Under the pieces are notes generated by a model, which saw only the letters and a program-made list of their open reading frames with translations, did no database searches and was not told where the DNA came from. 32,257 nucleotides of DNA from the IMG/VR virus record IMGVR_UViG_2541047777_000015; one strand, 5' to 3'. Below, one piece after another: positions 1 through 6,625 of this stretch (positions are counted from its first letter, which is position 1; every line of letters starts with the position of its first letter). Position numbers and translations under genes: made by a program. Source of the stretch: a virus. Lineage: Duplodnaviria > Heunggongvirae > Uroviricota > Caudoviricetes.

Positions 1-103
1 ATGGCACTGGACAGTTATGCATCTCCGAATATTATTCCGGAGCTAAGACAACCGAATGCCGCAGCAGGTAAGATCACGCTAGGGGGGCTGGACAGAATGG
101 CTG
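1..103 (+). pseudogene. 3' portion of an unidentified gene, interrupted by IS2 (frame resumes at 1440 and ends at TGA 1532-1534)
   Basis: Frame 1 is the only frame open across 1-103. After removing IS2 and one copy of the duplicated GGCTG, the same frame continues for 31 codons to a TGA that overlaps the ATG of the next gene (ATGA). Gene identity unknown; the 5' end lies outside the window. Confidence 0.5.
99..103. repeat. IS2 target-site duplication (GGCTG), left copy
   Basis: Identical 5-mer directly abuts both IS2 termini (99-103 and 1435-1439); IS2 makes 5-bp duplications. Confidence 0.8.
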
Positions 104-114
104 TGGATTTGCCC

Positions 115-1020
115 CTATATTTCCAGACATCTGTTATCACTTAACCCATTACAAGCCCGCTGCCGCAGATATTCCCGTGGCGAGCGATAACCCAGCGCAC
201 TATGCGGATGCCATTCGTTATAATGCTCGAACGCCTCTGCAAGGTTCTTTGCTGCCGTTAACCCGTCTGGTTTGGGCATGATACTGATGTAGTCACGCTT
301 TATCGTTTTCACGAAGCTCTCTGCTATTCCGTTACTCTCCGGACTCCGCACCGCCGTGTTCTTCGGTTCAAGTCCCAACATCCGGGCGAACTGGCGTGTT
401 TCATTAGCCCGGTAGCATGAACCATTATCCGTCAGCCACTCCACTGGAGACGACGGAAGATCGTTGCCGAAGCGGCGTTCCACCGCTCCCAGCATGACGT
501 CCTGTACTGTTTCACTGTTGAAGCCGCCGGTAGTGACCGCCCAGTGCAGTGCCTCACGATCACAGCAGTCCAGCGCGAACGTGACACGCAGTCTCTCTCC
601 GTTATCACAGCAGAACTCGAACCCGTCAGAGCACCATCGCTGATTGCTTTCTTTCACGGCCACTCTGCCTGTATGTGCCCGTTTCGATGGCGGTACAGCA
701 GGTTTTCGCTCAAGCAACAGCGCATTCTGGCGCATGATCCGGTAAACACGTTTGGCATTGATCGCAGGCATACCATCAAGTTCTGCCTGTCTGCGAAGCA
801 GCGCCCATACCCGACGATAACCATACGTGGGCAGCTCTCCGATAACATGGTGTATACGGAGAAGCACATCCGTATCATCAGTGTGACGACTGCGGCGGCC
901 ATCCATCCAGTCATCGGTTCGTCTGAGAATGACGTGCAACTGCGCACGCGACACCCGGAGACAACGGCTGACTAAGCTTACTCCCCATCCCCGGGCAATA
1001 AGGGCGCGTGCGCTATCCAC
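115..1020 (-). CDS. insD: IS2 transposase OrfB (InsD), DDE integrase-core protein
   Basis: 301-aa ORF with retroviral-integrase-like motifs ([17 protein letters not shown]). Its 5' end overlaps insC at an A6G slippery run (minus strand, plus coords 1020-1026) typical of IS3-family -1 frameshift fusion. Confidence 0.85.
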
Positions 1021-1343
1021 TTTTTTGCCCGTCCATATTCAACGGCTTCTTTGAGGAGTTCATTTTCCATCGTTTTCTTGCCGAGCAGGCGCTGGAGTTC
1101 TTTAATCTGCTTCATGGCGGCAGCAAGTTCAGAGGCAGGAACAACCTGTTCTCCGGCGGCGACAGCAGTAAGACTTCCTTCCTGGTATTGCTTACGCCAG
1201 AGAAATAACTGGCTGGCTGCTACACCATGTTGCCGGGCAACGAGGGAGACCGTCATCCCCGGTTCAAAGCTCTGCTGAACAATTGCGATCTTTTCCTGTG
1301 TGGTACGCCGTCTGCGTTTCTCCGGCCCTAAGACATCAATCAT
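978..1343 (-). CDS. insC: IS2 OrfA (InsC), HTH DNA-binding transposase component
   Basis: 121-aa [29 protein letters not shown]... The track ORF (978-1388) is trimmed to the ATG at 1343. Confidence 0.85.
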
Positions 1344-1434
1344 CTGTTCTCCAATGACTAGTCTAAAAACTAGTATTAAGACTATCACTTATTTAAGTGA
1401 TATTGGTTGTCTGGAGATTCAGGGGGCCAGTCTA

Positions 1435-1439
1435 GGCTG
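1435..1439. repeat. IS2 target-site duplication (GGCTG), right copy
   Basis: Second copy of the 5-mer, immediately outside the IS2 end at 1434. Confidence 0.8.
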
Positions 1440-1530
1440 TTACGCCCAGTGTGAAGAAAAGAAGGCTAAGTATGGTAGAATTTCCATACGCACAGACCTT
1501 GTTATCCGACTATACAGCCTGGAAGGCACT

Positions 1531-2319
1531 ATGACAAATCTACAACTGGAAGAAAGATTTAGGGCGCTTGAGAAAGATTACGATGCGCTCATTTCCACAA
1601 AATATACTGCGCAGAACGTTCTCACTCACACTATGGAAACCTATGTTGATTCTGGTAAATATAAAAACTGGATCGCCAGAGTGAAAAAGTTAATAGAGGA
1701 CAGCTACGGAAAAGAGTCTGATTATTACAATGACTTCAATACTGTAAACAGCAGGTGGTCTTCTAATTACAATACACTGATCAAAAGTTATAAACCGTTG
1801 TTTGATGCGGCGAGAGATGATCTTGCGCACTCTGCTGTCAGTACTAATACTCCTCAAGAAGGTTCGCCGCTGAGCCTCGTACTTAATATTCTTAACAGGT
1901 TTCCGACCTTTGTTCGCCAGTTAAAGAGGCGGTACAACGGCCGTGCGCCGCTTGAAGTTAATGATGAGTATGACGTACAGGATTTGATTTATGCACTGCT
2001 GACGCTTCATTTTAATGATATTAGGGCGGAAGAGTATACCCCCAGCTTTGCGGGCGCGGCCTCAAGACAGGACTTTCTTTTGAAAAAAGAGAAAATTGTG
2101 ATAGAGGTGAAGAAAACCCGTGAATCTCTGGGAGCGGGTAAAGTTGGTGGAGAGTTGCTTATTGATATGGCGCGCTACCGCGCTCACCAAGACTGCGATA
2201 CGTTGATCTTGTTTGTATATGACCCGGATTGCTACATAAATAATCCTTTGGGCGTGAAAACCGATCTGGAATCTAAAGACGCGGAAGGAAAAGTGAAGGT
2301 TGTTATTGCGCAGTTCTGA
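1531..2319 (+). CDS. hypothetical protein with PD-(D/E)XK-like C-terminal region (putative nuclease); second gene of an IS2-split operon
   Basis: ATG at 1531 preceded by GGAAGG; 262 aa. The N-terminal part looks helical (LEERFRALEKDYDAL); the C-terminal part has acidic-then-ExK spacing (EYDVQDLIYALL ... EKIVIEVKK) suggestive of a restriction-endonuclease-like fold. The start overlaps the stop of the upstream frame (ATGA). The track start at 1300 lies inside IS2 and is rejected. Family not recognised. Confidence 0.7.
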   Translation: MTNLQLEERFRALEKDYDALISTKYTAQNVLTHTMETYVDSGKYKNWIARVKKLIEDSYGKESDYYNDFNTVNSRWSSNYNTLIKSYKPLFDAARDDLAHSAVSTNTPQEGSPLSLVLNILNRFPTFVRQLKRRYNGRAPLEVNDEYDVQDLIYALLTLHFNDIRAEEYTPSFAGAASRQDFLLKKEKIVIEVKKTRESLGAGKVGGELLIDMARYRAHQDCDTLILFVYDPDCYINNPLGVKTDLESKDAEGKVKVVIAQF

Positions 2320-2352: not shown

Positions 2353-2400
2353 GCGGCCGTGCCAGCAGGACGAGCATGAAAAAGGCCGCTGGCACGGCCG
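2353..2400. terminator. stem-loop between convergent genes (putative terminator)
   Basis: 13-bp perfect inverted repeat CGGCCGTGCCAGC / GCTGGCACGGCCG with an 18-21 nt loop, followed on the plus strand by a T-rich stretch (GATTTGTCATCTTTG). Lies between the stop of 1531-2319 (+) and the stop of 2407-2700 (-). Confidence 0.5.
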
Positions 2401-2406
2401 GATTTG

Positions 2407-2910: not shown

Positions 2911-3746
<836 letters not shown>

Positions 3747-4311: not shown

Positions 4312-4735
4312 GCTAAAACTTTCGTTCAGGAAACTCTGAATGATACCTGAGAGTCTACTGAAGAGTTGTTTGTTCACTAGTTAGCACGTAGGAAATCATT
4401 CAATACTCGCACTATCGGAAGTTCACCAGCCAGTCGTAGCACGTCCTTGCAAACGACGTGCCTACGGTTTCAATCACCTCTCACCATCAATTCTATCAAT
4501 AATAATTAAACAGCGCCTAGACAAAATAAATAACAACAAGTCAACAACCTCGACAGGATGCCGATGGGATGATGAAGAGATAAGAAAGAATAACCAGTAA
4601 AGCCCTAAAACGTCAGCGTTCAGACGCGTTTTTTACTTAATCGGTAACAAATACGTTGTATCATAGCAAAATAAAATGATTGTTCTAAATCAGATTAACT
4701 CCTCACTTTTGTACAATGTCGCTTACAGGTATACC

Positions 4736-6625
4736 ATGAAATCCGAGACGCTAACTGTCCAACAACTTTTTCAAGACCGCCGACAATACTGTGTTCCATT
4801 CTATCAACGTGCCTATGTATGGACTCAGCAAGACCAGTGGTCAGCTCTACTGGAGGATATCCTAGAGAAAGTACAATCCCGGCTCTCGGGTACAAAACCA
4901 ACTCCCCATTTCCTTGGTGCGGTTGTACTGGAACCTCAATCAAAAAAAGGATTATTAGGTGTAGATTCCATACATATTATTGATGGTCAGCAACGATTGA
5001 CCACTCTTCAATATGTTCTGGCATCCATCCGATTAGCATTACGTGCTACGGATCTTTCCAGCTTAGAGGCTCTCATTTCGCCTTGCCTGAAAAACTCAAA
5101 CGAAGACACAATGCGAAATAAAGAAGTAGAACGCTTCAAACTGTGGCCAACTTTTCGGGATCAAACTCATTTTATTCAAAGTTTTAATGTTGAAAATATT
5201 GACGATCTCCGGGACGTATTCTCTGATAGTTTCACGCAGCATGGTACGTTGCGTAAGCATTTTAATCACCCGCCATCACTAGAAGCATTATGTTTTTTTA
5301 CTGAAGCCTTTATAAAATGGATTAAAATAGAAAACCACTCACCACAAGAAAATGCTGTAGCTCTAATTGAGGCTGTCTTAACAGATCTGAAACTGGCAAG
5401 CATATTTCTCGAAGCTGAAGATGATGCCCAAATAATTTTTGAAACATTAAATGGGCGAGGGGCGGAACTTCATGCTACGGATCTTATTCGCAACTATATC
5501 TTTATGTGCGCTGAGCATGAAAATATTAATGCTATTGAATTATATGAAAATGAGTGGAAGAGCTTTGAAGATAAATACTGGTCGGAAAAACAACGCCGTG
5601 GACGTATTAATAAACCACGCATGGAGTGGCTAGTACATGCGACATTGCAATCAGAAAGGCAACGTGAAATTGATCTGTCTCGCCTTTACAATGAGTATCG
5701 TGATTATGTAAGTAAGGACTTGTCTTCACAACGAGCAGATCTGCAAGTAAAGCGCCTCAAACAATATGCATCACAATATAAAGAATTGGTTGATGGTTTT
5801 GGCACAACCCCCATCTCACACTTTGGATATCGCATCGCAGACTATGATGTGACGACACTTTATCCGCTTGCTTTGTTCATTTCGATAGCTAACATCGCTG
5901 ATGATGAGAAAGCAGCCATGTATAATGATCTTGTCTCCTACGTAGTACGAAGAGCCGTATGTGGCCTGACGCCAAAGAATTACAACAATGTATTTATGAA
6001 TGTATTGCGGCACTTGGCTAAAACGGAAATTTCCAGTGTTGAGTTACGTAATATCCTCAATAACTTAAATGGCGAAGCCTCACGTTGGCCTGGTGACTCA
6101 GAATTTCTCAACGCTTGCATCAATGCTCCACTTTATCCTGGCAGGCTCGACGCACCGAAAATGCGCTCAATGTTAACGGAACTTGAAAGAGAACTTTGTC
6201 GCCAAGTAAAGACAGAAAAGCCTGATGTTCCAAATCTTTCTAATCTCGATATCGATCATCTTATGCCTCAAAGTTGGTATTCCTGTTGGCCTCTCGAAAA
6301 TGGTCGTATGGTGACAAATTCAGATGCTACGGTATTGAACCAAATTGTTCTGTCTGGAACCGATCTTACCCCTGAACAGCTACTGGTAAGGAAACGGCAA
6401 CAAGCGATATCTACTTTGGGAAATCTAACTTTGCTTAACCTTAGCGTAAACCGTTCTGTTCAGAATGCTGTATTTCTGAAAAAACGTGATGCTCTCATCG
6501 TCCACACCAATCTACGACTGAACATTCCACTTATAGTTAAGGATAAATGGGATGAGGATGAAATCCTGGAGCGGGGTAAAAAGTTGGGGGAAATTGCATT
6601 GAAAGTATGGCCAAAACACGATTAA
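4736..6625 (+). CDS. GmrSD-family type IV (modification-dependent) restriction endonuclease, DUF262 (ParB-like NTPase) + DUF1524 (His-Me finger)
   Basis: 629 aa. N-terminal DUF262 motifs (YCVPFYQRAYVW; IIFETLNGRGAELHATDLIRNYIF) and C-terminal DUF1524-like motifs (DIDHLMPQSW; LGNLTLLNLSVNRS). ATG at 4736 with AGG 7 nt upstream; the track ORF starts at 4676. Confidence 0.85.
   Translation: MKSETLTVQQLFQDRRQYCVPFYQRAYVWTQQDQWSALLEDILEKVQSRLSGTKPTPHFLGAVVLEPQSKKGLLGVDSIHIIDGQQRLTTLQYVLASIRLALRATDLSSLEALISPCLKNSNEDTMRNKEVERFKLWPTFRDQTHFIQSFNVENIDDLRDVFSDSFTQHGTLRKHFNHPPSLEALCFFTEAFIKWIKIENHSPQENAVALIEAVLTDLKLASIFLEAEDDAQIIFETLNGRGAELHATDLIRNYIFMCAEHENINAIELYENEWKSFEDKYWSEKQRRGRINKPRMEWLVHATLQSERQREIDLSRLYNEYRDYVSKDLSSQRADLQVKRLKQYASQYKELVDGFGTTPISHFGYRIADYDVTTLYPLALFISIANIADDEKAAMYNDLVSYVVRRAVCGLTPKNYNNVFMNVLRHLAKTEISSVELRNILNNLNGEASRWPGDSEFLNACINAPLYPGRLDAPKMRSMLTELERELCRQVKTEKPDVPNLSNLDIDHLMPQSWYSCWPLENGRMVTNSDATVLNQIVLSGTDLTPEQLLVRKRQQAISTLGNLTLLNLSVNRSVQNAVFLKKRDALIVHTNLRLNIPLIVKDKWDEDEILERGKKLGEIALKVWPKHD

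Follow-up and report, generated by a model that had tools for sequence, protein, structure and literature searches.

The gene at positions 1531..2319 (plus strand) of the viral record IMGVR_UViG_2541047777_000015, a stretch of 32,257 nucleotides that is here called the window, most likely encodes, by analogy with characterised relatives, an autoinhibited immune DNase. This gene, designated gene B, specifies a protein of 262 aa and is intact. It probably represents a single-gene cassette that carries its own core promoter and encodes a triggered DNase acting in defence or abortive infection, and not the second member of a two-gene operon; the defence role is deduced from domain homology and neighbourhood. 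An earlier note had paired gene B with a short open frame just upstream of it (frame A), both being disturbed by an IS2 insertion.

The gene B protein is 100% identical to WP_000183405.1 of UTI89, and no study of it was found in the literature by accession or family name. It comprises a helical N-terminal domain (residues ~1-100), a linker (103-110) and a C-terminal domain (117-261) that aligns to positions 3-149 of the 150 in the PF18742 (REase_DpnII-MboI) profile, its score of 165.3 bits being well above the gathering threshold of 27. The acidic/ExK pattern that had been noticed at the C-terminus is borne out by the catalytic motif D181 ... E192-V-K194, which does not vary among 21 homologues, the most distant of them 41% identical. 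The residues E146/D148 are invariant as well, and D181/E192/K194 align with D298/E309/K311 of EcbAgaN. The protein displays the restriction-endonuclease alpha-beta-alpha fold, its closest folds being those of type II enzymes such as BamHI, BstYI and BglII. The PF18742 match, the AF2 model and a profile match to PDB 23wq agree on the nuclease fold, the model having a pLDDT of 81.5 and a pTM of 0.59 with uncertain inter-domain geometry. A Foldseek comparison of the full-length model with the PDB was uninformative: GPCR-like helical noise prevailed, and only CdiA-CT was matched with high probability. As judged from the sequence, gene B is a PD-(D/E)XK nuclease of a named family, PF18742, contrary to the previous statement that no named family could be assigned. 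PADLOC also matches it to Aga_Helical-REase, for the C-terminal half only, and contains no full-length model for it.

Gene B is solitary wherever it is found, in integrase-adjacent chromosomal islands, on conjugative IncX4 and other plasmids, and in many phyla. All-against-all clustering of the flanking ORFs in 83 loci revealed no recurrent neighbour. When the 147 nearest neighbours were scanned with Pfam and PADLOC, 134 different Pfam families and no recurrent methyltransferase appeared, and on the plasmids no upstream gene of the same direction is near enough for an operon partner. The neighbours of gene B in UTI89 and ATCC 11775 are ssrA, a gene for a 97-aa hypothetical protein and a GIY-YIG gene. 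In the window it resides in an ssrA-linked defence island, adjoined by a PD-T4-3 homologue (E 8.6e-137) and a DUF262 gene, in agreement with the defence-rich surroundings reported before; elsewhere its neighbours include Abi, Gabija, Old, PIN and integrase genes. The family as a whole comprises more than 2,400 protein clusters, with matches in more than 550 representative genomes, and extends over many bacterial phyla, some archaeal assemblies and conjugative plasmids.

A conserved upstream region travels with gene B. It contains an inverted repeat, the box TGnTAGAAT, situated ~50 nt ahead of the ATG, and the ribosome-binding site GGAAGG. The box (TGGTAGAAT at 1473..1481, plus strand) is present in 10/10 alleles; its distance from the ATG is 44-50 nt overall and 49-50 nt in 9/10, the shorter spacing being accounted for by a 5-nt deletion in the IncX4 allele. 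Its n position varies between G, T and A, and the overlapping ATG is changed to GTG in Salmonella. We infer that the box is an extended -10 promoter of gene B, a call based on conservation and consensus only; a strict sigma-70 -35/-10 scan passed over it on account of its poor -35. The Shine-Dalgarno sequence GGAAGG (1521..1526, plus strand) lies 4 nt before the gene B ATG, and GGA[AT]GG is kept at near-fixed spacing in 9/10 alleles, with GGATTG in the IncX4 allele. The inverted repeat, CTGGAC-N14-GTCCAG, is seen in most enterobacterial alleles and has perfect 7-bp arms in Morganella; in the window the left arm is CTGGAC (88..93) and the right arm, placed by allele alignments, is GCCCAG (1444..1449; consensus GTCCAG). 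In 25 kb of the UTI89 locus (L001) one match to this repeat was observed against 0.05 expected, and it may constitute an operator for a dimeric regulator. As for RNA elements, RNAalifold gave no pairs in the upstream region, and Rfam returned tmRNA only, plus a sub-threshold PrrB/RsmZ match. On the other side of gene B, a GC-rich hairpin at 2384..2401, detected by consensus scan only and situated between gene B and the convergent 97-aa ORF, is possibly a bidirectional terminator.

The IS2 element occupies positions 104..1434 on the minus strand. Its features are those of IS2 of the IS3 family: it is 1331 bp long, its two transposase ORFs overlap, its terminal inverted repeats (arms 112-144 / 1393-1425) are imperfect, the target duplication measures 5 bp, and the identity exceeds 99.5% (99.6-99.7% to annotated IS2 copies). 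Nothing is unusual in the element itself. Both ORFs lie on the minus strand and were assigned by Pfam, one at 978-1388 (HTH_Tnp_1) and the other, with the DDE domain, at 115-1020 (rve, rve_3). The duplicated sequence GGCTG forms a perfect direct repeat on the two flanks (99..103 and 1435..1439) and is present as a single copy at the IS-free locus. The IS2 allele was found only in the HVH 126 lineage, and none of 5,426 complete E. coli genomes has IS2 at the same site. The insertion is clean and strain-specific and, as previously suggested, probably recent. The IS2 end adjoining gene B is the one that lies upstream of the first transposase ORF, so that IS2 transcription is directed away from this gene. 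The insertion site precedes the TGnTAGAAT box by 38 bp, and neither this box nor the ribosome-binding site nor the coding sequence is affected; among the conserved upstream elements only the inverted repeat is split, its arms being now 1.3 kb apart. With both the box and the ribosome-binding site on its own side of IS2, gene B keeps its inferred core promoter, which argues against the notion that the insertion separated gene B from its promoter. If TGnTAGAAT is indeed an extended -10 promoter, gene B would still be transcribed from its own core promoter despite IS2. In the same way, if the inverted repeat is an operator, IS2 may alter the regulation of gene B rather than abolish its expression.

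The closest characterised relative of gene B is bAgaN (EcbAgaN, PDB 23wq). It has been established that bAgaN is a Mn2+-dependent non-specific DNase and the effector of long-B Argonaute (BPAN) systems, that its C-domain is toxic alone, that its N-domain keeps it autoinhibited, and that octamer assembly activates it (PMC10620215, PMC13535254). In both proteins a flexible linker connects a helical N-domain with a nuclease, and their C-terminal PD-(D/E)XK domains are homologous (PADLOC Aga_Helical-REase 1e-26; PDB profile 3.3e-6), with aligned NEY.VQ and D...E-V-K motifs. However, bAgaN has 390 aa versus 262 in gene B, and no similarity was detected between the two N-domains: residues 100-258 of gene B cover only positions 212-372 of the Aga_Helical-REase/PDB profile and leave the bAgaN-type N-domain unmatched. 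Furthermore, BPAN systems have a catalytically inactive long-B Argonaute gene adjacent to the nuclease, whereas no Argonaute gene is among the annotated neighbours of gene B in UTI89 or ATCC 11775, and no neighbour of any kind recurs in the 83 loci. In the Detocs system, PF18742 serves as an alternative effector domain (bioRxiv 10.1101/2023.01.24.525353). The nuclease domain shared with gene B is there an interchangeable immune effector, but it is fused to a receiver and needs a kinase and a phosphotransfer partner, whereas gene B has neither a receiver (by Pfam) nor such neighbours. A likeness in design only is found with Shedu (SduA, DUF4263), a single gene that combines a variable N-terminal regulatory domain with a C-terminal PD-(D/E)XK nuclease; gene B matched neither DUF4263 (Pfam, E <=0.1) nor the PADLOC Shedu models (E <=1).

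By analogy with bAgaN and the Detocs PF18742 effectors, gene B would be a metal-dependent DNase held inactive by its own N-terminal domain. A phage- or plasmid-derived cue would activate it, probably via oligomerisation, and the ensuing degradation of DNA would provide defence or abortive infection from one gene. The N-terminal domain, proposed by analogy to act as sensor and autoinhibitor, gave no informative match in fold or sequence searches.

The model put forward in the earlier note, in which frame A and gene B form a coupled two-gene operon (a toxin-antitoxin-like or two-component defence module) whose first protein is truncated and whose second gene loses its promoter through IS2, is very improbable in view of the relatives. 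The frame itself is present as described. It starts with an ATG at window base 1 and does not extend past the window edge, an in-frame stop being located 8 codons upstream at the IS-free locus, and it runs to position 103 (plus strand; 34 codons and 1 nt, matching UTI89 L001:11903-12005 exactly). It then resumes past IS2 at 1440..1533 (plus strand; 31 codons and the stop), ending at a TGA that overlaps the gene B ATG at 1531 (ATGA). Joined together, 1-103 and 1440-1533 give a 65-codon ORF identical to UTI89 L001:11903-12100 and uninterrupted in IS-free E. coli, which together with the ATGA overlap favours the operon, as does its rarity when the 579-nt spacer is shuffled by dinucleotides. In such shuffles an ORF in the coupled frame reaches 65 codons or more in ~1% of cases, and any ORF on the same strand does so in ~20%. 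The length of frame A is mildly unusual versus chance and not compelling alone. Against the operon, none of the alleles examined from outside E. coli has frame A intact, even where gene B is 85-89% identical; it is either disrupted or missing. In Morganella, Pantoea, Enterobacter, Pectobacterium and Salmonella, with gene B 77-89% identical, the frame is spoilt by stop codons, by indels that shift it, by a deletion of 81 nt or by the absence of its ATG; stops and non-3n indels interrupt it in Pantoea, Enterobacter, Klebsiella and Serratia. In Morganella, where gene B is 89% identical, 81 nt of the frame are missing and ACG replaces its ATG. A tblastn search against 82 loci recovered weak fragments only, even at 87-89% gene B identity, and the protein search returned 10 clusters, all from E. 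coli at 72% identity or more, with no homologues outside this species among 5.8 billion protein clusters.

The substitutions point in the same direction. By-eye counts gave 2 synonymous and 8 non-synonymous codon changes between UTI89 and Pantoea in the last 20 codons of frame A, and 14 nt changes, 2 of them synonymous, between UTI89 and Morganella in the last 33. The changes are, on the alignments, not codon-like, and the evolution of the frame resembles that of non-coding DNA. PGAP annotates nothing at frame A in UTI89 or ATCC 11775, and gene callers leave gaps of 280-420 bp upstream of gene B in Morganella, Salmonella and Pectobacterium. Moreover, the conserved -10 box sits inside frame A, downstream of its ATG, and gene B lacks both a recurrent neighbour and an intact frame A partner in the relatives. 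Conservation of the pair in IS-free relatives had been set beforehand as the test of the operon; there frame A neither co-occurs with gene B nor, by the comparison, codes. The two-gene operon is largely refuted by these allele comparisons, which identify frame A as an unconserved, E. coli-allele-specific frame within the regulatory DNA of gene B and not as a conserved gene; its 3' part can be read as the gene B promoter and 5' untranslated leader. The claim that IS2 truncates protein A by 31 residues stands as far as the codons are concerned (34 native codons are kept and 31 lost), but not as damage to a conserved gene. Given that a coupled 65-codon ORF is unlikely by chance (P ~0.01), frame A may be translated as a lineage-specific micro-ORF. 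The result is a corrective one: an ATGA overlap and an open frame are insufficient to call an operon, and the supposed partner gene vanishes on comparison with IS-free relatives.

Two further explanations accept gene B as a lone gene and assign it another function. It is unlikely, in the first place, that gene B is a constitutively active solitary restriction endonuclease with specificity for a sequence or a modification, either type IV-like, with modified phage DNA as its only substrate, or a DpnII/MboI-like GATC cutter from which the host is shielded by its housekeeping Dam methylase; it would then be no triggered, non-specific effector. The idea is encouraged by the similarity of its fold to BamHI, BstYI and BglII, by a Pfam family name that alludes to DpnII/MboI (PF04556), and by a catalytic stretch, RQDFLLKKEKIVIEVK, that locally resembles RFDFVIKNEQVLYLIEVN of DpnII. 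The cognate methyltransferase is absent from the locus, but an enzyme that acts on modified DNA or is protected by Dam could do without it; the DUF262 gene next door is likewise annotated with no methylase beside it. A true relationship to DpnII, and hence a GATC/Dam logic, was considered and rejected: gene B has no PF04556 match, and the hhalign comparison (probability 0.6%, 20 columns) is not significant, the DpnII sequence employed being validated by Pfam at 2.7e-100. The restriction-enzyme reading is also opposed by the non-specific DNase activity of the closest characterised relative, by an N-domain with no resemblance to known modified-base readers, and by the spread of the family over many phyla that are not known to have Dam. 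Slightly less likely still is the proposal that gene B works for its carriers, the mobile elements, in plasmid or island competition, exclusion, recombination or repair, rather than anti-phage host defence. It is in line with the 367 plasmid records that contain gene B or its remnants, 301 of them conjugative, with the tyrosine recombinases or integrases often found close to the gene, and with the lack of any tblastn homologue in 50,697 phage genomes. However, such a context does not discriminate between both possibilities, because defence genes themselves typically ride mobile elements. In addition, gene B of E. coli adjoins the known anti-phage gene PD-T4-3, and those PF18742 domains whose role is known are immune effectors.

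Returning to the triggered DNase, solitary PF18742 proteins such as that of gene B form a large family, which is common in chromosomal islands and on conjugative plasmids, IncX4 among them. Its nuclease domain is proven as an immune effector in BPAN, and in Detocs it is an annotated effector variant. More tentatively, the family could represent a widespread single-gene immune system, in which a bAgaN-like DNase without a separate sensor is switched via its helical N-domain. Its Enterobacterales form would be a cassette with a promoter and a palindromic operator, and the IS2 allele a natural operator-disruption mutant. If gene B protects alone against phage or plasmids, a compact system of one gene would be gained, along with a minimal model of nuclease silencing, an incremental advance that introduces no new principle. 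As a separate matter of annotation, solitary PF18742 proteins are often mislabelled as "malate dehydrogenase".

IS2 is present in the window as a complete element (104-1434), recognised by its domain matches, its imperfect terminal inverted repeats and its 99.6-99.7% identity to annotated IS2 copies. Its two IS3-family transposase ORFs (HTH_Tnp_1, 978-1388; HTH_21/rve/rve_3, 115-1020) lie on the minus strand, both oriented away from B, the 262-codon nuclease-like ORF at 1531-2319, and a perfect 5-bp target duplication, GGCTG, flanks the element (99-103 and 1435-1439). Deleting IS2 and one GGCTG rebuilds a 65-codon frame, A (protein MALDSY...TAWKAL), whose TGA overlaps the ATG (1531) of B. The sequence description in the earlier note proved accurate for all these features, including the 31 codons lost from A. 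Among 5,426 complete genomes of E. coli, none has IS2 at this site, and the 47-aa product of the truncated A is recorded only once in the database, for E. coli HVH 126, whose contig has the same arrangement as the window; the insertion is therefore strain-specific and probably recent. B itself occurs at no less than 99% DNA identity in 113 of the 5,426 genomes, including UTI89, S88, APEC O1, IHE3034 and ATCC 11775. In UTI89, 580 bp separate it from ssrA (tmRNA) upstream, and PGAP annotates nothing between them. A is intact there (UTI89 locus L001:11903-12100; its ATG is window base 1), and an in-frame stop lies 8 codons upstream of that ATG, so that A cannot be longer than 65 aa.

On the grounds for rejection that the earlier note itself had set, its upstream gene appears not to be a gene. 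Among 5.8 billion protein clusters, homologues numbered 2,483 for B and 10 for A, the latter all from E. coli and at least 72% identical. Alleles (versions of B with their upstream DNA) whose B is 85-89% identical still show recognisable homology in the DNA preceding B, but in them the A frame is destroyed. Stops and non-3n indels, including ~90 extra nucleotides, interrupt it in Pantoea and Enterobacter; in Morganella 81 nt of A are missing, and ACG stands at the position of the E. coli ATG. The open part in most alleles comprises only the last 19-33 codons, and even these are broken by a stop at codon 5 on the IncX4 plasmid and by a frameshift in Serratia silvae. Substitutions were counted by eye from the printed sequences, not computed. 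Between UTI89 and Pantoea the last 20 codons show 2 synonymous against 8 non-synonymous codon changes, and the same kind of count gave 2 synonymous among 14 nucleotide changes over the last 33 codons between UTI89 and Morganella, a pair in which this stretch shows 70% amino-acid identity and B 89%. Gene callers leave the 280-420 bp upstream of B empty in Morganella, Salmonella and Pectobacterium. The translationally coupled operon of A and B proposed earlier draws some support from the rarity of the coupled frame, which reaches at least 65 codons in only ~1% of dinucleotide shuffles of the spacer; however, with A not conserved, its homologues confined to E. coli and B solitary in 83 loci, such an operon is very improbable. 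That rarity is the reason why translation of A as a lineage-specific micro-ORF is kept as a possibility.

Comparison of ten alleles from chromosomes and plasmids, with B identities of 60-100%, revealed three common sequence blocks upstream of B. The block TGnTAGAAT (window 1473-1481, TGGTAGAAT, plus strand) lies 44-50 nt before the ATG, at 49-50 nt in nine alleles, the IncX4 allele having a 5-nt deletion. Its n is G, T or A, and in Salmonella the 'ATG' overlapping it becomes GTG with the TG retained, as an extended -10 promoter would predict and Met-Val-Glu codons would not. The block may thus be the promoter of B, although its -35 is poor and a strict consensus promoter scan did not call it; if so, transcription would start near 1488. 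A Shine-Dalgarno site, GGA[AT]GG (1521-1526, plus strand), lies 4 nt before the ATG in 9 of the 10 alleles. Further upstream, an inverted repeat, CTGGAC-N14-GTCCAG, contiguous in UTI89 (L001:11990-12015), is found in most enterobacterial alleles, with perfect 7-bp arms in Morganella and a symmetric, compensatory-looking change of both arms in Salmonella; it matches once in 25 kb of the UTI89 locus (0.05 expected) and may be an operator. The leader of B yielded no conserved RNA structure and no Rfam family.

The earlier note held that IS2 separates B from its promoter. IS2 ends (1434) at about -54 relative to the proposed start, with the candidate promoter block and the Shine-Dalgarno site both downstream of it, so B would not be cut off if this start is right. 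What IS2 does do is stand between the two arms of the palindrome (left, 88-93; right, 1444-1449). The outward-facing -35 element of IS2 should lie at the end opposite to B, and a hybrid promoter is therefore not expected. As an insertion into regulatory DNA the event is ordinary and probably recent, and at most it alters regulation by splitting the putative operator. The frame of B is open upstream into IS2 (1300-2319, 339 aa in the ORF list), and the HVH 126 assembly GCA_000457835.1 (L085:4354-5319) calls a 321-aa protein beginning within IS2; both N-terminal extensions are artefacts, and the ATG at 1531 is the start favoured by conservation and by the Shine-Dalgarno site.

Previously assigned to no named family, B is an uncharacterised member of PF18742 (REase_DpnII-MboI; residues 117-261, E 9.5e-49; also phrog_29450, 7e-52). 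Its nuclease assignment is upheld by this match, by D145, E146, D148, D181, E192 and K194, which are invariant across homologues as distant as 41% identity, and by the family profile, which matches one solved structure, EcbAgaN (PDB 23wq), aligning the NEY.VQ and D...E-V-K motifs. PADLOC's 'Aga_Helical-REase' model (Argonaute-associated nuclease) is matched in its C-terminal half only (1e-26). In the AlphaFold model (pLDDT 81.5, pTM 0.59), residues 1-100 form a helical N-domain that includes a beta-hairpin, and residues 103-110 a disordered linker, followed by an alpha/beta nuclease domain; by sequence the N-domain is confined to B's own family, and its fold search matched generic helical bundles only. 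Kinship with real DpnII could not be demonstrated, with no PF04556 match in Pfam and an hhalign probability of 0.6% over 20 columns against a Pfam-validated DpnII sequence, and the family name provides no basis for GATC specificity. Many entries of the family bear the name 'malate dehydrogenase', which looks like a propagated mis-annotation, since PF18742 is their sole Pfam domain.

The PF18742-type domains that have been characterised serve as immune effectors. In bAgaN, a non-specific DNase dependent on Mn2+, the C-domain is toxic when isolated and the N-domain autoinhibits; Argonaute-driven octamer assembly activates the enzyme (PMC10620215, PMC13535254). In Detocs operons the domain is annotated as one of the alternative effectors (bioRxiv 10.1101/2023.01.24.525353). 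Like bAgaN, B joins an N-domain to a nuclease through a linker; unlike bAgaN, it has no partner gene. Our best estimate is that B would be a self-contained DNase, kept inactive by autoinhibition and released by an infection cue. That it is instead a constitutive restriction enzyme, modification-dependent or Dam-protected, seems unlikely. Slightly less likely still is service to the mobile element itself. Plasmid records carrying B number 367, of which 301 are conjugative. B is a solitary gene: when all flanking ORFs from 83 loci were clustered, the only neighbours to recur were tyrosine recombinases, in 6 of the loci. Its 147 nearest neighbours fall into 134 different Pfam families (commonest integrases, 5; PIN, 4; Abi_2, GajA, Old and type I specificity subunits, 2 each), and no methyltransferase recurs among them. 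The closest gene upstream of B stops ~440 bp short of it on the IncX4 plasmid and is divergent on pO177B2. About half of the plasmid records hold homologue fragments only (query residues 1-70, 1-134 or 1-218), mostly unannotated and on large E. coli plasmids; these look like pseudogene remnants.

Neighbours of B at other loci include Abi, Gabija, Old, Lit-like peptidase and integrase genes. In Morganella (L086 3210-6511) B sits at icd between AAA_33 kinase-like and Peptidase_U49 (Lit-like) genes, adjoining a prophage integrase, and in Salmonella (L088 4833-5567) an Abi_C gene follows 40 bp downstream on the same strand; none of these defence-type contexts is common to different species. In UTI89, B is followed by a 97-aa hypothetical protein, a GIY-YIG protein, a DinI-like pseudogene, DUF262, a recombinase fragment and phage tail genes. 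The 97-aa ORF (WP_000174562.1; 2407-2700, minus strand, convergent with B) has no significant match in Pfam, NCBIfam, PHROG or PADLOC and was not seen beside B homologues of other species. The GIY-YIG protein (2911-3717, minus strand; LEM-3-like GIY-YIG, Pfam 1.3e-12) matches PADLOC's model of PD-T4-3, a single-gene anti-phage system, nearly end to end (E 8.6e-137). With this homologue and the DUF262 gene beside B, the suggestion of a defence-rich island, here ssrA-linked, holds; the gene earlier taken for type IV restriction is the DUF262 one in our reading. A sub-threshold Rfam match to PrrB/RsmZ directly downstream of ssrA, outside the window (L001:11531-11673; 20.4 bits against a gathering score of 44, E 0.059), ends at a terminator-like hairpin and is probably due to chance. 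For window 4676-6625 (plus strand) and beyond, matched to L001:15302-17191, the UTI89 island goes on with the DinI-like pseudogene, DUF262 protein and recombinase fragment, after which prophage contractile-tail, baseplate, tape-measure and head genes make up what remains of the window.
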